Assembly: GCA_016284485.1 (NCBI GenBank) | Contig: JAEEOX010000154.1 | Span: 1-29,455 of the forward strand | Direction: 5' to 3' | Length of the DNA: 29,455 nucleotides | From: Bacillota bacterium | Lineage (GTDB): Bacteria > Bacillota > Clostridia > Peptostreptococcales > Anaerovoracaceae | Shown here: positions 10,722-18,765 of the stretch, in pieces | Layout: each line of letters opens with the position of its first letter | Numbering within the stretch: the stretch's first letter is position 1 | Notes under the pieces: generated by a model | The model's input: only the letters and a program-made list of their open reading frames with translations | Databases searched by the model: none | What the model was told of the DNA's origin: nothing | Made by a program: the position numbers and the translations under genes

Positions 10722-11014
10722 GATTATTAACTGATCGTATGGCGGCGTTTTCGAAGGCGTCTTCCGCAGCGCCGGTACTTAGCGACCGACGAGCAGTAAA
10801 AATATCCGCTCTGCCGTAGGCAGCGTATCTGCAAAATAAGCAAATGGAGAGCCAAATTCTATTTGGCGATGCAGTTGGCTGTTTTGCAGATACATGGCGC
10901 GTAGCGCCACGGATATTTTTACTTAAGCGAAGCGGTCGCTTAGCACCGCTGCGCGAGGACTAAGCGAGAGCGGGCGCCTTCGTAAACGTACTGTGCGTAC
11001 GTCAGTTAATAATC
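10722..11014. repeat. Structured palindromic intergenic element A
   Basis: Nested inverted repeats (13-bp outer, 14-bp and 12-bp inner stems, three small hairpins); shares a 23/25 and a 45/50 nt block with element B. Confidence 0.85.
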
Positions 11015-12796
11015 CGTATTTCTCCACTTGCAGTGCTTTCTGAAACATGTTTTGCACTGCCTGTTGCAGTCCGGGCGAGCCTCGTCGTAGGGGGTCTCGT
11101 CGGAACCGCTGGTTTCGATGGCCTTGGAATAAGCCTCGCTGGCCGGCTCCGTCTCCCCTTCATTGGACACATAATCGTGAGCCCTCACCATGGAACGGTC
11201 GTTCATGAGCGTCTCGCGCTTGGCCGCCTCATACTCTTCCCTGGATGCGCCGCCGATCTTTTCCTTGAGGGAATTGCGGTACTCCGTCATATCGTAGCCC
11301 ATGGCCTCCATCTCGTCGATGTGATGCATGAGCTCCTCCTGCTTGGCGTCGGAAGCCTTGGCCATGGCCTGAAGCTCCCTGATCAGGGAATCCTTTCTTG
11401 TCTTGTCCACTCTCTCATGGAGCTCGATGCCCAGAGACTGGCCCAGAAGCTTGATGGCTCCCTGCCTGTGAGTCTTGGAGAGAACTCCCAGAGAAGCCAT
11501 GATGTAGTCGTTGTCCTGCAGGATCTTCACCGCATCGGAGGGATAGAGCTTCATTCCCGTCTCGTTGTCCTGAGGGATCAGCGCCATGATATCCTTGCCA
11601 TGAGGAAGTCTTGTGAGGGCGCCGCCGGTGCCCACGATGTACTTGATCTGGGTAAGGTCCTTACCCTCAGCAACGGTGGACCTGCCCGAGGGGCCGTAGA
11701 TGTAGCGGATGGATCCGGCATGTCTCTCTACGGCGCGGAGGGTGGCCTCCTTGCAGAGTCTCTCAACCAGCTTGAACTCATCCTCGTTATTGGGGATGGC
11801 CACATAGGTCTCCAGGGTCTTGTCCAGGTCGATCATCAGCTTCTCTTCGCACTCTTTCCTGAGCTTTTCCTCACCGATGGACTCGATGACCTTGTAGCGG
11901 TTCACATAAAGTCCCAGGTCGCCTTCCACGGTCCTCTTGGCCATGGGCTCCGGTGCCACCAGAACTCTGGATACCGCGTCGGAATCCTCAGACACCGAGT
12001 GAACGTCGGTGGTGGCGCCGCCTACGTCGATGGTCATCACCTCTCCCAGGCAGTCGTACAAAAGTTTCGTGCACTCCATGACCGCTCCCGGCGTAGGGAT
12101 TATGGGGCCGTTGACCATGTCTCTCACGTGCTCCATGCCCGGGGCCTTGGTGATGTTGTCCTCGAATGCCGCCTGTATGACTTTACGGCAGGGCTCCACG
12201 TTGAGCTGGTCGATCTTGGGATATACGTTGTCAACCAGGTAGAGTTCCTGGCCGCTCTCCTCATCGAAGATCAGCTTCATCTCCTCCTGGTTCTCTATGT
12301 TTCCGGCATATACGACGGGGATGTGCAGCCCCATGGAGCGGATCATCTCTGCGTTGTATATGGCCGTATCTCTCTCTCCGAAATCCACGCCTCCCGCGAT
12401 CAGGATCAGGTTTGGCTTGATCTCCTTGATCTTCTGGAGGTCCGTGCGTCTCAGTCTGCCGACTGTGATGTCGTGGATGATGCCGCCTGCGCCCAGAGCA
12501 GCCTCTCTCGCCGCCTTGGCCGTCATGTCGTACACCAGGCCGTGCACGGTCATCTTCAGTCCGCCGGCAGCGGATGAAGTGGCAAGCATCTCATCATATT
12601 CCAGGGTGTCTATGCCCATCTTTTGCTTCAGGTCGTCGATGGCTCCCTGAAGACCTACCCTCACGTCCCCCTGGAGGACGGAAGTAGGTGCCTGACCCTG
12701 GGCCCAAAAAACGGGCTTCTCGGTGTCAAGTCCGATGAACGCATTTACTACCGTTGTGGTGGAGCCGATCTCGGCTACCAAAACATCTACTTTCAT
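11006..12796 (-). CDS. GlmL/MutL-like ornithine aminomutase reactivating factor with C-terminal Cys-rich extension
   Basis: Actin-like motifs AEIGSTTT, TSSAAGGL, IDVGGATTDVHS, RTVEGDLG, GTGGAL; located between oraE and orr. Confidence 0.85.
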   Translation of the reverse strand: MKVDVLVAEIGSTTTVVNAFIGLDTEKPVFWAQGQAPTSVLQGDVRVGLQGAIDDLKQKMGIDTLEYDEMLATSSAAGGLKMTVHGLVYDMTAKAAREAALGAGGIIHDITVGRLRRTDLQKIKEIKPNLILIAGGVDFGERDTAIYNAEMIRSMGLHIPVVYAGNIENQEEMKLIFDEESGQELYLVDNVYPKIDQLNVEPCRKVIQAAFEDNITKAPGMEHVRDMVNGPIIPTPGAVMECTKLLYDCLGEVMTIDVGGATTDVHSVSEDSDAVSRVLVAPEPMAKRTVEGDLGLYVNRYKVIESIGEEKLRKECEEKLMIDLDKTLETYVAIPNNEDEFKLVERLCKEATLRAVERHAGSIRYIYGPSGRSTVAEGKDLTQIKYIVGTGGALTRLPHGKDIMALIPQDNETGMKLYPSDAVKILQDNDYIMASLGVLSKTHRQGAIKLLGQSLGIELHERVDKTRKDSLIRELQAMAKASDAKQEELMHHIDEMEAMGYDMTEYRNSLKEKIGGASREEYEAAKRETLMNDRSMVRAHDYVSNEGETEPASEAYSKAIETSGSDETPYDEARPDCNRQCKTCFRKHCKWRNTDY

Positions 12797-12825
12797 ACTT
12801 TTTTCCTTATAATCTGATACGAACT

Positions 12826-12999
12826 TGAAAGAAGATAAAAAGTAAGGGAACTTGTATCGCTAAAGGCACTTTGGGATACCGGTCCTTAGCGACAGCCAAG
12901 GGCATCACCCTTGGCTGAGCTTAGAACCGCTGTTGGGCTCCCAAGTAGCGGGAGCGGCCTTAGAGATACATCGTTCCCTTGGTATTTAGTCTTCTTTCA
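12826..12999. repeat. Structured palindromic intergenic element C (short version)
   Basis: Core motifs CCGGTCCTTAGCGA (12879-12892) and GCTTAGAACCGCT (12919-12931) flank a perfect 10-bp hairpin; imperfect outer inverted repeat. Confidence 0.75.
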
Positions 13000-15235
13000 G
13001 ATCTTCCGGACGGAATCCGTGAGGAACTTCTCCTCTTCTTCTCTGTCTCTCCTGAGCCAGGAAGGTTGCTACGTCGATTCCGTGAGAGTTACGTCCGAAT
13101 CCCATGTCGATACCTGTCTTCAGAGCTTCCTCGGGGATTACCTGAGTTCCGCCTGCGCAGATGATGATCTTGTCTCTGATACCCTTTTCGATGGCCAGAT
13201 CGTTGATCCTCTTCATGTTCTTGTAGTGGACGTTGTCGTGGGAAATGATGGTGGAAGCCAGGATGGCCTGAGCGTTCTCCTCGATGCATGCGTCTACGAT
13301 CTTTTCCACCGGTACGGATGTTCCGAGGTATACGCACTCGATGCCCCACTTCTCGATGCCGCCGTGCTTGATGTTGATGATCTCACGCATTCCTACGGAG
13401 TGCTCGTCATCACCGACTGTTCCGCAGACGACCTTCATGTGTTCATGTCCCTCGAACTCTTCATAGAGTTCAGCGTCGCTCATTACGTAGGGCTCAGGCG
13501 GGATCTCCAGTGTGGTAAGGTCGATGTCGAAGTCTACCTTGCCCTTGATCTCGATCCTGGTTCCCTCTGCCGGCTGGAGAACTTCTGCGGAAATAACTTC
13601 CGGGTTCACCAGGCCAAGCTTCTTGGCCAGTTCTGTACCTGCTGCTTCAGCAACACGCTTCTCGCAGGGCAGGCAGAATACCAGCATGATCGTGCGGTCT
13701 CCGCACCACTCAACTTCGGGAGTGATGCACTTGCCGGTCCTGTATTTTGCGACAGCTTCAAGTCTCTTCTCTACGCAGTCCTCGGGGTCAAGCTCGTCGA
13801 TGTAGACGATCTTGGAGTGATCCTCGAATGTGCAGCCGCCGATGAGGGCTGACGGGTTCTCGGGATCTCCGCCGTACTGCTCAACGTTGTTGTATCCATA
13901 GTGAGCGGTGACGGGAGCCATGTAGTCTTCGTCTCTCTTGAAGATGAAGCCTGCTCCGAATCCTCCGTCGATCTTACGGGCGATACCGTCGCCGTTTCTC
14001 TCGGGATATTCGCCGGAGTCTACGAAGAAGCCGTCCTGAACGGCGTTGAAGTATCCGCCGACTTCAAGGATCTCTTCTACGTAAAGGACTGCTCTTTCCT
14101 TGAGCTCTCTGGCCTTTTCTCTTAAAGGTCCGTCCTTCTTGAGCTCTACCATGTCCATGATGCCGTCCAGACCGATCAGTGTCTGCTTGGCTGTATCCGT
14201 GGCTTCAATGTTGAAGATGTGCCAGGGAACGTTACGTCCTTCGTCAGGAGTAATGGTGGACTGGATGTCTACGGAGGTCAGCTTGGAAATGAACATGTTC
14301 ATTACGTGAGTTACTGTAGCCTCTGTGGTTGAGCTCTGTACATACTTGGTGTTCTGCTGTGCTCTCATCTTGTATCTGCCGCAGAAGTCACGAAGGGCTA
14401 CTGCATAGGGCAGGTCGAGGTACATGCAGGGTGCCGGTGTTGCCGAAGGCGGTACCGTTGACAGCGAGATGAGATCCGGCGGAAGGCCGATCCTCTCGGA
14501 GAAGTATGAGTTGATGGCGTGCTGCACGATGAGCTCGGGCATTACCTTCCATGCGTCACGGGCTGTAGCGTTGGCGTTGTGAGCTCCGTCGATCTGGAGC
14601 ATGTTGGCCCATGCCATGATCTTCTTGGATTCGCAGGCGTCTACGAAGGATCTTACCATGTTTACGTCTCTGTAAAGAACGTTGTACTGGGGGTCCTGGT
14701 GAGCGCCGTTGATGCCCTCTTCTGCGAACATGACGGCGATGTCAGGTCCTGCAACTCCGGAAATGTAGGAGTGATAGTTGATGGGACGGCCAACTTCGTC
14801 TTCGATCATGTCGATGGCCTTCCTCTGTGCCCTTACCTGCTTACGGGTAACGGGTACGCCGCCGATTCCCTGAGGAGTACCTTCCATGAGGCCGTCGATG
14901 TGGGACTGTCCCATGTGTCTGATTACCATCAGGTGGTCTGCGCCGTGCCATGCGGCCATTCTCATACGACGAACGTCGTCCTCGAATCTGCCGGATGCGA
15001 TCTCGGTAGTGATTACCGGCATCGGCTGCGGGTCGATATTATCAAGGAACTTAGCCGGAGGAAGAGGAACGGAGTTCTTCAGGTCCTTGGAAAGTTCATG
15101 ATATTCAAACTGATATCTGTGCTGGTTGGGGTCTTTCTCTCTCCATGTCCAGCCGCGGCGTCTGGGCTCATATTTGTCAAGGTCTTTGAGGAGCTCTACG
15201 ACGTCAAGTTTCTCGTTGGGTTTCAATACTTGCAT
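12986..15235 (-). CDS. oraE: D-ornithine 4,5-aminomutase beta subunit (AdoCbl + PLP)
   Basis: Start MQVLKPNEKLDV (GGAGG RBS), YEPRRRGW, EIASGRFEDD, base-off DEHSVG motif, PLP lysine in IKHGG. Confidence 0.95.
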   Translation of the reverse strand: MQVLKPNEKLDVVELLKDLDKYEPRRRGWTWREKDPNQHRYQFEYHELSKDLKNSVPLPPAKFLDNIDPQPMPVITTEIASGRFEDDVRRMRMAAWHGADHLMVIRHMGQSHIDGLMEGTPQGIGGVPVTRKQVRAQRKAIDMIEDEVGRPINYHSYISGVAGPDIAVMFAEEGINGAHQDPQYNVLYRDVNMVRSFVDACESKKIMAWANMLQIDGAHNANATARDAWKVMPELIVQHAINSYFSERIGLPPDLISLSTVPPSATPAPCMYLDLPYAVALRDFCGRYKMRAQQNTKYVQSSTTEATVTHVMNMFISKLTSVDIQSTITPDEGRNVPWHIFNIEATDTAKQTLIGLDGIMDMVELKKDGPLREKARELKERAVLYVEEILEVGGYFNAVQDGFFVDSGEYPERNGDGIARKIDGGFGAGFIFKRDEDYMAPVTAHYGYNNVEQYGGDPENPSALIGGCTFEDHSKIVYIDELDPEDCVEKRLEAVAKYRTGKCITPEVEWCGDRTIMLVFCLPCEKRVAEAAGTELAKKLGLVNPEVISAEVLQPAEGTRIEIKGKVDFDIDLTTLEIPPEPYVMSDAELYEEFEGHEHMKVVCGTVGDDEHSVGMREIINIKHGGIEKWGIECVYLGTSVPVEKIVDACIEENAQAILASTIISHDNVHYKNMKRINDLAIEKGIRDKIIICAGGTQVIPEEALKTGIDMGFGRNSHGIDVATFLAQERQRRRGEVPHGFRPEDLKED

Positions 15236-15236
15236 C

Positions 15237-15599
15237 TTACTTACCTCCCTTGAAAGCTGCCACGACCTTGTCCCATCCCTCGCCCTCAGCGAGCTTGATG
15301 GAAGCGTCACGGATCGAAATGTTCTCTAACTTCGATAACTTGTATACGCAGTGGCCTGCGCCCTTGCCCATGAGGCCGTGATCCATGCAGTGGTTCACGA
15401 TCTTCTGGGTATCCAGTGAAGACACACCCATCCTCATGAGGACGGCACGCTCTACTGAAGGAGTGGTGTTCTCGTAGCCCAGCTTGAGCAGAGGCTCGTC
15501 CACCTGTCTGATCAGATCCCAGAATCTGTCATAGAGTTCCTGGTCCGTAAGATCCTTCAGATGCTGATGTCTTACTTCAAAATCGTCTTCTCTTTTCAT
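15237..15599 (-). CDS. oraS: D-ornithine 4,5-aminomutase alpha subunit
   Basis: MKREDDFEVR..., ENTTPSVERAVLMRMG, GLMGKGAGH; directly upstream of oraE. Confidence 0.93.
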   Translation of the reverse strand: MKREDDFEVRHQHLKDLTDQELYDRFWDLIRQVDEPLLKLGYENTTPSVERAVLMRMGVSSLDTQKIVNHCMDHGLMGKGAGHCVYKLSKLENISIRDASIKLAEGEGWDKVVAAFKGGK

Positions 15600-15651
15600 C
15601 CTATATTTCTCCTTTATTAGTGGTCGCTTTTCATCTACTTCTTAAAAAGCA

Positions 15652-15895
15652 TTTTGTAGGATGGAGCTTCCGCAGCGTCGGTTCTTAGCGATCCGCAAGC
15701 CGTCAGATCAATTCGTACTGCCTGTGGCAGTTCCCGTGCAAAAGTATGGGTGCGGGTCCGTATTTATACGGAGAAGCGACCATCCTTTTGCGCGGGTAGA
15801 GTCGCGGAGCGACTCGAATTGATCTGTCGATAAGCGAAGCGGTCGCTTAGAACCGCTACGCGAGGACTGAGCGCAAGCGGCTCCATCCTACAAAA
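15652..15895. repeat. Structured palindromic intergenic element B
   Basis: Perfect 16-bp outer inverted repeat ttttgtaggatggagc/gctccatcctacaaaa; same stem architecture and core motifs as element A. Confidence 0.85.
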
Positions 15896-15903
15896 GATGA
15901 TTT

Positions 15904-17322
15904 TTAAAGTCCAAGAGTTTCCTTTACGAAAGCGATGTCGGTCTTTGTCTCGTCAGCCAGATACTGGAGGTCTTCCGGTGTAAGGTTCTCGAGAGCAACG
16001 CCCGCCTTCTGTACGGCCTTCTTGATCCTGGAACGTCTGAAGTGATCCAGGTCAGCCACTTTGTGCTTGATGTAGCTGGGGTCTTTCGGAAGTATGATGT
16101 TGACACCCGGCTTATCCTCTTCCTGAGGAATACCGAAGTGGATGTCGATGCCGTTCTCTCTTGCGAATGCAAGCTGCGGCTGGATGTGCTTGCCGGCTCC
16201 GGTGTACTCTGTCTCGGAAACTACGAGGATAGCGTCCTCGGGCATCTCCTGAGCCAGGGAGAAGGCAGCTGTAAGAGCTGTGTTGCCTGCAGGACCTCTC
16301 TCAAGTCCTTCCAGGTTGGCCAGCATCTCTGTCATGTACAGGAACTCGCCCTGAGTTACTGTGACGTACTTGTCCATGTAGCGGAGAGGTCTCGCTGCGG
16401 AACGGGGAACGTCGGAGTGGTCGGGGTCTGTAGCATAGGGAACGCCGAATCCGGTGTGTCCTGTGGTGCAGGACTTACGGTTGAAGTCGACGTCGGATGC
16501 CATTGAAAGTCCGCTGAGGTCGATGGATGCTGCATATACTTTGGTATCCTTGCAGCCGGCCTTAAGCAGTCCTCTTGCAGTACCTGTCAGCATTCCGCCG
16601 CCTGCGTTGGTGCAGACTACCAGGTCCGGATCTCTTCCCAGCTTCTCTCTGCACTGCATCGCGATCTCGTAGCCGAGAGTCTCGATACCGGAGATACCGA
16701 AGGGTGAGTAAAGGGAAGCGTTGAAGAATCCTGTGTCCTCAAGTACGGAAAGTGTGGTGTAGAAAAGCTCGGGTCCTACTGTGAGCTGGATAACTTCAGC
16801 TCCGAGAGCCTCGCACTTTCTGGCCTTCTCAACGATCTCAGGCTGGCCGATTCCCTTGGAATCATAGCACTCCTGAACGATGATGCACTCAAGTCCCTGC
16901 ATTGCGGCCTGGGAAGCAACGGCTGCGCCGTAGTTTCCGGATGTTGCTGCTACAACGCCCTTGTAGCCAAGCTTCTTGGCGTGAGCGCATGCGCAGGCAG
17001 CACGTCTGTCCTTGAAGGAACCGGAAGCGTTGGCAGCTTCGTCCTTGACGAAGATCCTGGCGCCGTAACCCGGCTTAGCATATTTTCTTGCGAGAGCTGT
17101 GATGTTTCTCAGCTCGAGAAGCGGTGTGTTGCCAACTCCTGTTCTGGACTGGATCCTGTTGATCTCGTCCAGGGTGTAGTTGGTTGATTTCATAAGAGCT
17201 TCATAATCGAAGGCAACTGAGCCGGACTCGAAGGGTGTGTAGTCAAGTCCAAGGGCTTCCTTCATGATGTCGTTGCCTCTTGCCATCACGGAATCATAAT
17301 CTTTTGGTAAATTCACTGCCAT
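15904..17322 (-). CDS. ortB: 2-amino-4-oxopentanoate thiolase beta subunit
   Basis: PLP fold II (GNTPL, KDEAANASGSFKDR, ATSGNYG), N-terminal DIMKEALGLDY; TAATG overlap with ortA. Confidence 0.92.
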   Translation of the reverse strand: MAVNLPKDYDSVMARGNDIMKEALGLDYTPFESGSVAFDYEALMKSTNYTLDEINRIQSRTGVGNTPLLELRNITALARKYAKPGYGARIFVKDEAANASGSFKDRRAACACAHAKKLGYKGVVAATSGNYGAAVASQAAMQGLECIIVQECYDSKGIGQPEIVEKARKCEALGAEVIQLTVGPELFYTTLSVLEDTGFFNASLYSPFGISGIETLGYEIAMQCREKLGRDPDLVVCTNAGGGMLTGTARGLLKAGCKDTKVYAASIDLSGLSMASDVDFNRKSCTTGHTGFGVPYATDPDHSDVPRSAARPLRYMDKYVTVTQGEFLYMTEMLANLEGLERGPAGNTALTAAFSLAQEMPEDAILVVSETEYTGAGKHIQPQLAFARENGIDIHFGIPQEEDKPGVNIILPKDPSYIKHKVADLDHFRRSRIKKAVQKAGVALENLTPEDLQYLADETKTDIAFVKETLGL

Positions 17323-17624
17323 TATTTCTCACCTCCGTGAAGGATCTCTCTCAGCTGACGGTCGATCTCGATGATCTCGGGAACGAAGTCGCCATAGCTG
17401 TGAGTGTAATGAGGTCTCTCTTCGAAAAGAGTTCCCTTTTCAAGACGTCCTGCTGCTGTAAGAACTGTTACTTCGTCTCCGATCTCAGCGGCCTCGTCCT
17501 GTAAAAAACCTTTAGTCCACATCTGAAGGTCAGATGCCCTTGTATCGTCGGGAAGTTTTCCCGTACGCTGCTCGGATCTGAGTACGATGTTATGGATGCG
17601 GACCCAATCTCCTTTTTTAGCCAT
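17322..17624 (-). CDS. ortA: 2-amino-4-oxopentanoate thiolase alpha subunit
   Basis: Start MAKKGDWVRIH (AGGAG RBS), QMWTKGFL, PHYTHSYG; 100 aa. Confidence 0.9.
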   Translation of the reverse strand: MAKKGDWVRIHNIVLRSEQRTGKLPDDTRASDLQMWTKGFLQDEAAEIGDEVTVLTAAGRLEKGTLFEERPHYTHSYGDFVPEIIEIDRQLREILHGGEK

Positions 17625-17645
17625 TTTTCTCTCCTTATTTGCTGA

Positions 17646-17681
17646 CATGAGGCACGCCGATCGCCGCCGGCGTGCCCCATG
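17646..17681. other. Intercistronic hairpin between ord and ortA
   Basis: ggcacgccg-atcgccgc-cggcgtgcc 9-bp stem extended by catg/catg; no U-tract. Confidence 0.55.
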
Positions 17682-17709
17682 AGTCATAAATCAAATTAAG
17701 CTCGTCTGA

Positions 17710-18765
17710 TTATTTTACGATCTTCTTGTCTTCTGCGATGAAGTCTCTGAAGTCGCCCATGATAGCTCTGGGAATCGGAAGGTCGATCATTGTCTTGAGG
17801 CCGGGCTCAGCATTGATAACGAACGGGATCATGTTCACGCACATAGCGATTGTTCCAAGTCCTCCTTCGATCTCGGGAGAGTTCTTCATGTTTACGTTGG
17901 GAGTTCCCTTGATGATTACATAGTCACCGGTCTGGATGCCGACCTGCTCGGGCTCGATCTGCTGCGGGTGATCCATGTGTACGGGGATTCCGCCGGAGAG
18001 CTTAGCTTCTGCTGTCATGGCAACGCCTGCGCAGGAACCTGCTGCTGCGAATCCGTAGGGGGACTTTCTGTCAACGTCAGTTGTGATGGGGTTCATGTCC
18101 TGGGAGAACTCTTCAACCTTGAGTCCCATACCAGCAGCCATCATGCCAACGGACTCTGCGAATCCAACGTGGCCGGACATTGTGTGGTTAGCTTTCCTCT
18201 CAAGGAATTCCTCAACGGGGATGCCGATGCCCTGCTCATGCATTACGAGCGGTCCGAAGGGTGAAAGTGAGTTGACTCTTCTTGAAGTGATCTCTTCAAC
18301 GTCTGTAAGTACGCCTGTCCAAACGAGAACCAGAAGGTCCATGATGTGGCCGGGGTTAACGCCTGTTCCAAGGATGGAAACGCCGTTTTCCTTAGCGATC
18401 TTGTCAAGTTCAGCTGCGAGGTCAGGATTCTGAGCTGCAGGGAATGCCATCTCTTCTGCGGAAGTGATGCAGTTGATCTTCTGCTCAAGGATAAACTTCA
18501 TCTTGGGGAAAGCTTCCTTTGTGAAGGAGTCGGTGCAGAGAAGAACGATGTCAGCTGCGCCGGGCTTGATGATGGACTCGTCCTGGATGATGACGTCCGG
18601 TCTGTCGCCTCTCTCTGTCTTGATGTAGTCATACATGGAAGTTCCGATCTTCTTGTTTCTTCCAACGACGCCTACGATCTCAACGCCCTTCTTCCTGAGA
18701 AGCATGTCAGCCATTCCGCCGCCCATTGAGCCTAAACCCCAAATGATTACTTTTACATTTTCCAT
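17710..18765 (-). CDS. ord: 2,4-diaminopentanoate dehydrogenase
   Basis: Rossmann IIWGLGSMG, ILGTGVNPG, RVNSLSPFG, GHVGFAES, HPQQIEPE; first gene of the ort/ora cluster. Confidence 0.92.
   Translation of the reverse strand: MENVKVIIWGLGSMGGGMADMLLRKKGVEIVGVVGRNKKIGTSMYDYIKTERGDRPDVIIQDESIIKPGAADIVLLCTDSFTKEAFPKMKFILEQKINCITSAEEMAFPAAQNPDLAAELDKIAKENGVSILGTGVNPGHIMDLLVLVWTGVLTDVEEITSRRVNSLSPFGPLVMHEQGIGIPVEEFLERKANHTMSGHVGFAESVGMMAAGMGLKVEEFSQDMNPITTDVDRKSPYGFAAAGSCAGVAMTAEAKLSGGIPVHMDHPQQIEPEQVGIQTGDYVIIKGTPNVNMKNSPEIEGGLGTIAMCVNMIPFVINAEPGLKTMIDLPIPRAIMGDFRDFIAEDKKIVK

Follow-up and report, generated by a model that had tools for sequence, protein, structure and literature searches.

Template switching extends hairpin stems by an insertion in one half, homogenises their arms and inverts the spacers between them, and the published cases mostly involve a few nucleotides (nt), in ribosomal RNA stems or in yeast promoters (PMC8794818, PMC8604942, PMC13100816). 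[quoted passage not shown] Here, we analyzed a stretch of 29,455 nt (the window; contig JAEEOX010000154.1 of assembly GCA_016284485.1) from a metagenome-assembled genome (MAG) of a rumen bacterium of the Anaerovoracaceae, 1.63 Mb in 215 contigs and referred to as G000. According to the list of open reading frames (ORFs) of the window, all genes between 9.5 and 17.3 kb lie on the minus strand. They were labeled ortB, oraS, oraE, glmL-like and orr, in that order, by the original prediction, a note made from the letters of this DNA, and we take them to form an ornithine-fermentation operon. Three gaps between these genes are occupied by long imperfect palindromes: A (10722-11014), C (12826-12999) and B (15642-15907). 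All three are copies of a non-coding palindromic repeat with a folding, asymmetric core of ~88 nt, closed by a long stem whose outermost part pairs with the end of the preceding gene, including its stop codon. We argue that these outer arms probably arose by growth of the palindrome after its insertion, filtered by selection.

The pairing across the stop codons, which the original prediction had placed in all three elements, was recovered at each of them. In A, 10722-10734 is complementary to 11002-11014 at 13/13 positions; in C, 12826-12835 is complementary to 12990-12999 at 10/10, within a 15-nt arm (87%) that runs through the stop; and in B, 15642-15648 is complementary to 15901-15907 at 7/7, within a 14-nt arm (86%) that lies outside a perfect 16-bp arm. 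The paired stretches contain the minus-strand stop codons at 11006-11008 (A), 12986-12988 (C) and 15904-15906 (B). When the far flank was shuffled, the pairing proved to be beyond chance for A (P < 5e-5) and for C (P = 8e-4); for B the pairing is present, but is weak when taken alone (P = 0.02). The elements and their parts, in coordinates of the window, are as follows:

10722-11014, plus strand: element A, long form; a hairpin between the stop codon of the glmL-like gene and the ribosome-binding site of orr, with its core antisense to the operon
10722-10734, no strand: far (distal) outer arm of A; reverse-complements the last part of the glmL-like gene, and six sister species lack it at their empty sites
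10761-10796, plus strand: conserved 5' half of the A core (nhmmer, E = 2.6e-10)
10797-10923, plus strand: optional branched insert of A, which makes the long form; missing in the orthologue of species G002
10924-10974, plus strand: conserved 3' half of the A core with a GNRA-capped mini-hairpin (nhmmer, E = 1.9e-15; covariation)
11002-11014, no strand: gene-side outer arm of A; includes the stop codon at 11006-11008 and the final two codons (Asp-Tyr)
12826-12999, plus strand: element C, a copy that is minimal and divergent; located between the stop of oraE and the glmL-like start
12826-12840, no strand: far outer arm of C; inverted copy of the oraE tail (15 nt, 87%; P = 8e-4)
12985-12999, no strand: gene-side arm of C; includes the stop codon at 12986-12988 and the last oraE codons
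15642-15907, plus strand: element B, long form; lies between the stop of ortB and the start of oraS
15642-15648, no strand: far outermost 7 nt of B; pairs with 15901-15907, including the ortB stop at 15904-15906; weak alone
15652-15667, no strand: left half of the perfect 16-bp arm of B; partner at 15880-15895
15666-15701, plus strand: conserved 5' half of the B core (nhmmer)
15831-15882, plus strand: conserved 3' half of the B core (nhmmer)

Compared with dinucleotide shuffles, RNA folding of the elements gave z-scores of -8.1 (A), -9.5 (C) and -7.5 (B). The stems end 29-42 nt before the next start codon, which would leave room for a ribosome-binding site. A and C are without a U-tract, and B has a run of five U residues that lies partly within its stem; many copies elsewhere do have a GC-rich stem with a U-tract behind it. 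TTAA is found on both sides of A, of the A variant in species G006, and of B; as an insertion target it was rejected, since other copies are not flanked by it.

The key control for the origin of the outer arms is provided by orthologous sites without the element in sister species. For this comparison we used G000 and nine other species of the genus (10 genomes, all MAGs that are 82-96% complete); site labels such as G002:C51 stand for genome and contig, and are distinct from element C of the window. Element C was found in G000, G006, G002 and G007, and element B is restricted within the genus to G000 and conspecific strains. At four or five loci, one of the arms contains ancestral sequence of the host, of which the far arm holds a new copy of 11-35 nt in reverse complement. 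What was copied differs between these loci: in some it is the tail of a coding region plus its stop codon, in others a terminator or a promoter region that resembles an operator. At junction C, the element-free species G008 has the same 14 nt (ATTTAGTCTTCTTT) around the stop of oraE, and the far arm repeats them reversed; in G007, oraE ends four codons earlier, and the outer stem differs and again reaches the local stop. At G003:C37, the last three codons and the TGA are ancestral, as judged from the empty sites of G002 and G001, and are copied in reverse on the far side; the same locus in G000 shows the same reverse copying, with G000's own tail. At G007:C14, an intact host terminator stands to the left of the element and is present in 3/4 element-free sisters (30/34 identical to that of G003), its inverted copy to the right of the element (32/35) is missing from the empty sites, and the promoter region of the next gene has been displaced outward, not replaced. 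Finally, the left outer arm at G002:C51 matches the empty sites of G007 (18/21) and G003, and the inverted copy beyond the element (26/28) is found only in the filled genome. The copied stretch at this last site (L174, ~17500-17800; L009, 1290-1330) overlaps an apparent LexA-box-like operator of the GAAC..GTTC type upstream of a promoter, and its reversed partial copy could create a second operator half-site.

Junction A was compared with six element-free species. In five of them, the stop of the glmL-like gene lies 10-20 nt from the ribosome-binding site of orr; the sixth, G004 (L044, G004:C109), carries an unrelated insertion of 857 nt at this position, apparently with a small ORF. A hairpin with the arms of A is found in 0/6 of these species, and the far arm is new. 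The Asp-Tyr codons in the gene-side arm are ancestral, with GATTAT kept in the empty sites of G003 and G004. Among the filled sites, that of G002 has the same arms as A of the window around a short core, and that of G006 has different arms, which extend only to the TTAA at the stop. As its stop codon, the glmL-like gene has TGA in 6/6 species without element A, and TAA in 3/3 species with it. Empty sites were also located for the copies L011 and L030, where the origin of the arms could not be read. Where junctions B and C lack the element (L035, L037, L038, L039, L032 and L033; orthologues of 12797-12985 and 15600-15903), plain GC-rich hairpins were seen, some of them followed by a T-run, which look like attenuators or partial terminators inside the operon. 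At the site that is occupied in G000 by the C133 element, G006 instead carries another repeat, consisting of tandem units around GGGTCAGATTTGGGTG and GACCCAAT (L186, G006:C50, 50640-51000).

Contact with stop codons extends across the family. Among 61 arm ends that face the 3' end of a gene, as defined by mechanical ORF calls, the stem overlaps the stop codon by 1-35 nt in 25, and lies within 9 nt of it in 36. The paired nucleotides inside the ORF averaged 5.3, against 1.7 after shuffling of the far flank; only this overall mean was used, as the per-site shuffle P values are weak due to local alignment finding chance matches in AT-rich sequence. The contact is partly geometric, because an ancestral gap of 10-20 nt, where there is one, tolerates an insertion only directly behind the stop. 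With respect to timing, a recently expanded sub-family in the Lachnospiraceae allows the ends of the element to be defined exactly. In 18 young copies of this sub-family, the 12 nt outside the ends were complementary at 4.1/12 positions on average, versus 4.2/12 with swapped partners (p = 0.63), and flank pairing overall showed no excess (p = 0.63 and 0.24). The inverted flank copies are therefore not made by insertion, and accumulate later. Thus, the suggestion of the original prediction that template switching copies host flank into the far arm agrees with the empty sites at several loci, an in-place inversion and the swapping of interiors described below, with the correction that the copying follows insertion.

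Taking these observations together, we estimate at roughly 60% the probability that growth of the palindrome after insertion, filtered by selection, gave rise to the outer arms. The strong hairpin of a settled intergenic copy would provoke intrastrand template switching during replication: the nascent strand would snap back at the stem, copy the flank that has just been made and then return to the template. An inverted copy of the flank would thereby be inserted on the far side, turning L-E-R into L-E-L'-R, and the stem would grow outward into whatever adjoins it. In a compact operon, an element would survive only directly behind a stop codon, and because the copied flank is often the end of the upstream gene, the stem would come to cover the stop. 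Copies that engulf the ribosome-binding site of the next gene would presumably be lost, such that growth would look one-sided. As a process, this is a known kind of mutation, here at an unusual scale.

Several features of the family fit this process. An ancestral arm combined with a gain of its reverse complement in the other arm, as in published template switches, was found at junction C, G002:C51, G007:C14 and G003:C37. Inversion of the spacer or loop is seen between G000:C26 and G006:C53, where the entire hairpin, arms included, is inverted in place. The cores of G000 and G002 are also oppositely oriented at the C71 site, where G000 has an apparent newer copy nested within the remnant of an older one. 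In two metagenomes, conspecific strains have a B whose interior is A-like (16 differences over 122 nt, comparing 15703-15831 of B with 10799-10920 of A), with the arms of B unchanged. Since this B carries an A-like interior between its own arms, interiors are exchanged between copies. Template switching is known to yield both in-place inversion and swapped interiors (PMC8794818, PMC8604942, PMC13100816). Each copy is closed by its own stem of 20-67 bp, and the arm pairs are nearly all Watson-Crick (755, next to 27 G.T, 15 A.C and 71 other pairs); this predominance fits copying at the DNA level, and the strand test on the arms (G.T versus A.C, 27:15) was not decisive.

A number of points weigh against palindrome growth as a full account. 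The inner 15-30 bp of most arms are found in neither the empty sites nor any other copy, and growth by template switching does not explain where they come from. At A, part of the 13 bp may be borne by the element, because empty sites have TGA and filled sites TAA, which leaves a certain host copy of only about 6 bp, and the 7 bp of B are possibly due to chance. The arms of G003:C28 are not host-derived according to its empty sites; at the C133 site, the alignment to the terminator in the empty site of G002 is ambiguous between loop insertion and flank copying; and at G008:C7 the element landed two codons before the stop, so that the arm now supplies Arg-Ile-stop. Some stop overlaps, this one among them, hence have another cause. 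In addition, the genomes of the genus are fragmented MAGs at 80-93% identity, with some ambiguous alignments. We infer the replication mechanism from its end products alone, and the selective filter against covering ribosome-binding sites is an assumption.

The arms themselves have a varied history. The original prediction considered them unrelated between copies, and this is largely the case: for three tested arms, those of B, G003:C28 and G008:C7, no donor or second copy was found in the 10 genomes of the genus, although at 82-96% completeness this does not prove that donors are absent. The description falls short insofar as many arms follow a common loose plan, in which the centre is ATAT-like and the base, where the arm adjoins the core, is GGAGG-like. 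In Bilifractor porci, a conserved proximal arm is followed by a distal arm that is specific to the copy, and in several copies of the family the distal stem is GC-rich, with an A-tract on one side and a T-tract on the other. The young sub-family differs in its arms: the Lachnospiraceae genome RUG13128 (G062; e.g. L231-L238) has ~45 palindromic copies with the ends GGGGCTGTCGCA and conserved arms of 46 bp, and arms can therefore travel with the element. These copies form a graded series of central deletions, in which the longest (180 nt) still include the core and the shortest (37 nt) consist of the bare arms; it follows that the palindrome also shrinks from its centre. One of them, L236, carries an extra insert with inverted repeats of its own. 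Apart from this sub-family, conserved terminal repeats were not found, with arms unique per locus in the genus. Target duplications are likewise lacking, as no direct duplication was found at 31+64 copies or at the defined ends of the 18 young copies.

Among other explanations, we consider it unlikely that the outer arms result from selection at the level of the mRNA, in which a hairpin at the stop codon is melted by, or stalls, the terminating ribosome and in that way tunes the expression of the upstream gene or the processing or stability of the mRNA. In Escherichia coli, ribosomes stall and expression is lowered where a REP hairpin lies at most 15 nt from a stop codon (Liang et al. 2015, as summarised in PMC12306157). 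The position of 36/61 stop-facing sides within 9 nt of the stop is in line with such an effect, as is the fact that the arms track lineage-specific coding tails (element C in G007 versus G000; the C205 site in G003 versus G000), and sister species retain some hairpin at junctions B and C, such that intercistronic structure may matter. However, the same growth extends just as often over flanks without coding sequence (a terminator in one case, a promoter region resembling an operator in another), the plain hairpins of the sisters at B and C begin 15-18 nt after the stop without overlapping it, and the overlaps of the family range from 1 to 35 nt with no preferred register; the arms also have no excess of G.U pairs, and young copies show no pairing of their flanks. 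The idea in the original prediction that selection makes the hairpin reach the stop, so as to put its folding under the control of terminating ribosomes, thus received no specific support: non-coding flanks are copied too, sister hairpins start past the stop, and G008:C7 overlaps its stop only as the gene reads into the arm. By analogy with what is summarised for REP hairpins, a side effect of the stems on translation of the upstream gene would be plausible.

The overlap at G008:C7 also speaks for the converse scenario, in which an element inserts at or in the end of a gene and the reading frame runs into its AT-rich arm, so that the coding tail derives from the arm. There, the filled gene ends in ...EARI* and that of the empty site in G001 in ...EAK*, with the last codons and the stop located in the arm. 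The change from TGA (6/6 empty sites) to TAA (3/3 filled sites) at the glmL-like junction would fit as well, as would the TTAA at both ends of A, of the G006 variant of A and of B. As a general explanation we nevertheless judge this scenario to be rather improbable, considering that the 14 nt around the stop at junction C are also present in the element-free G008, that the tail and TGA at G003:C37 are ancestral, as are the Asp-Tyr codons at A, that the complement on the far side would still need explaining, and that the copied terminator and promoter flanks are not accounted for.

Still less probable, in our view, is that integration itself creates an inverted target duplication, through a hairpin or snap-back intermediate of a transposase or reverse transcriptase. 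Such a mechanism would account for unique arms on every genus copy, for which no donor was found, and for inverted flank copies at several independent loci. On the other hand, the flanks of the ~45-copy sub-family are no more complementary than swapped partners and its arms travel with the element, the inner arm is mostly not host-derived, and no associated protein gene was seen in ~110 loci. Insertion of elements into the loops of existing hairpins, such as terminators or REP-like palindromes, whose old stems would then be the arms, is suggested by the many distal arms that resemble terminator stems, preceded by an A-tract and followed by a T-tract, and by the hairpins at the empty C133 site of G002 and at the sister junctions B and C. 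We regard it as highly improbable: these older hairpins differ from the arms of B, C and C133 in sequence or orientation, no such hairpin exists in the empty sites of A, C205, C71, L014 and L030, and the terminator at G007:C14 stands intact beside the element instead of being split by it. That the outermost pairings are chance matches in AT-rich flanks can be dismissed for practical purposes, as shuffling had already rejected chance for A and C and inverted copies of 24-35 nt occur at other loci, which leaves this possibility for the 7-bp A/T match of B only.

In order to delineate the family as a whole, we searched with nhmmer, using hidden Markov models of the two core halves. A and B have two conserved blocks in common, a 5' half of ~33 nt and a 3' half of ~50 nt, and element C bears a divergent version of both. 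About 12 copies are present in the source MAG. The core occurs in a short form of ~88 nt and a long form of ~215 nt, with a branched insert of ~125 nt between the halves; unpaired halves were found only as divergent or truncated copies. The core pattern was matched in 7/9 other species of the genus, in 0/51 genomes from other genera of the family and order, and in no viral contig. In Clostridia of the rumen and gut, >116 stretches carry this core, which is 85-90% alike when the alignment is judged by eye; they come from Anaerovoracaceae, Mogibacterium, many Lachnospiraceae, Eubacterium and Christensenellales, among others, and from the isolate Bilifractor porci. The core was also seen in bins named Faecalibacterium sp. 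CAG:74 (L079) and Prevotella sp. CAG:279 (L115), which could reflect horizontal transfer or contamination of the bins. No Rfam family was found at gathering score in the window, or at E <= 10 for two short-form copies. The repeat family, which was in none of the databases or literature searched, appears to be undescribed so far. An ORF-bearing autonomous copy was not found in ~110 loci, for which whole genomes were not annotated, nor were kb-spaced pairs of element ends found in the 45-copy genome G062.

A single fold of the core is supported by 60 short-form copies. It consists of the wholly variable closing stem, followed by an invariant TCC/GGA helix and then a helix of 8-10 bp with two covarying pairs (C-G 44-45, U-A 12-14), an apical hairpin that varies freely, and a mini-hairpin of two pairs with a GNRA loop and a covarying closing pair (C-G 48, U-A 11). 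In this alignment, 92.5% of the cells are paired, versus 30-45% with partners slid, and the covariation score of 0.33 (0.14 in shuffles) was reached by 0/500 shuffles. Covariation is thus present on one strand, as predicted for a conserved single-strand fold of RNA or single-stranded DNA (ssDNA). By itself it is no proof of RNA function, because template switching can create compensatory pairs as well (PMC8794818). The lasting asymmetry of the core does indicate constraint. With respect to neighbouring genes, 20 cores are antisense, 11 sense, 15 convergent and 7 divergent, and all three copies in the window are antisense to the operon; these mixed orientations argue against a cis-acting mRNA motif that needs one orientation of the core. 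They fit a selfish repeat in which some factor would read the core in the form of a folded single strand. As a more tentative proposal, which we find possible though doubtful, the 88-nt core may be a new folded ssDNA or RNA module of a structure-bordered mobile element that actively promotes snap-back synthesis and thus repeatedly captures host stop codons, terminators and operators. If so, structure and not end sequence would set the borders of the element, the whole hairpin would move whatever its arms, and new hairpins in mRNAs as well as new palindromic sites of regulation would be generated by it across Clostridia of the gut and rumen.

Metagenome contigs from unrelated samples span A and C, as well as B with its swapped interior, and the elements are therefore not an artefact of the assembly. 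Contigs from an RNA library (X15) cover A and B partly and at low depth; carry-over of DNA is possible, and no RNA ends are visible. Contigs C67, C97 and C116 of G000 begin or finish in or beside repeats of this family, and in C116 the left arm of one type is joined to the right arm of another, through either recombination between copies or a chimeric assembly. Three of the ~12 genomic copies lie within one 6-kb operon (Poisson P = 1.4e-5), which suggests local spread or copying between nearby hairpins.

The family provides a clear natural record of the growth of bacterial palindromes, with element-free orthologous sites as controls. It illustrates that stepwise compensatory mutation is not needed for the origin of long, near-perfect hairpins and palindromic sites, and that the ends of genes, terminators and an operator-like site can be brought into stable stems by a selfish repeat, with possible effects on translation termination, mRNA decay and regulation. 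For annotation, such elements account for contig breaks, unusual C-terminal variants and what look like "conserved structured RNAs" in operons. Since the family is widespread and Bilifractor porci, which carries it, is a cultured isolate, the growth process as well as the role of the core are open to bench work. Overall, the pattern of the outer arms looks like a by-product of replication rather than a purpose-built regulator.

Compared with known systems, several copies resemble Rho-independent (bidirectional) terminators in having a distal stem that is GC-rich and flanked by an A-tract and a T-tract; unlike terminators, their stems of 20-67 bp surround a conserved core of 88-215 nt, and the copies in the window lie inside an operon. 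REPs and REPINs, as far as described in the sources consulted (Liang, Rudd and Deutscher 2015, in PMC12306157; PMC3337134), are likewise palindromic, intergenic and often no further than 15 nt away from a stop codon upstream. REPs are 20-40 nt long, with a conserved sequence and a RAYT partner, whereas the present family measures 130-300 nt, with a structured core and variable stems that overlap the stop codon instead of merely lying downstream of it. Its conserved part is the asymmetric 88-nt core, and no link to RAYT was seen, RAYT genes not having been searched for. With MITEs that fold as transcript hairpins (Correia/NEMIS, ERIC and RUP; PMC3184786), the family shares being small, non-coding, multi-copy and intergenic, its presence within operons in either orientation, short and long forms due to inserts, and a patchy distribution among close species. 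Unlike MITEs, the copies of the source genome are without conserved terminal inverted repeats or target duplication, no parent insertion sequence was seen among the ~110 loci covered, and it is the centre of the element that is conserved, not its ends. The nearest process is that of template-switch or quasipalindrome mutation (Ripley model; Lovett lab; Monttinen and Loytynoja 2022, PMC8794818; Hazkani-Covo lab, PMC8604942, PMC13100816). As in these cases, one half of the stem is ancestral and the other gains a reverse-complement insertion, the arms stay complementary, the spacer or the whole unit is inverted, and changes of multiple nucleotides occur in one step. Unlike the published cases, a single mobile repeat family is involved here, with repeated expansions of 11-35 nt into coding tails, terminators and an operator-like region.

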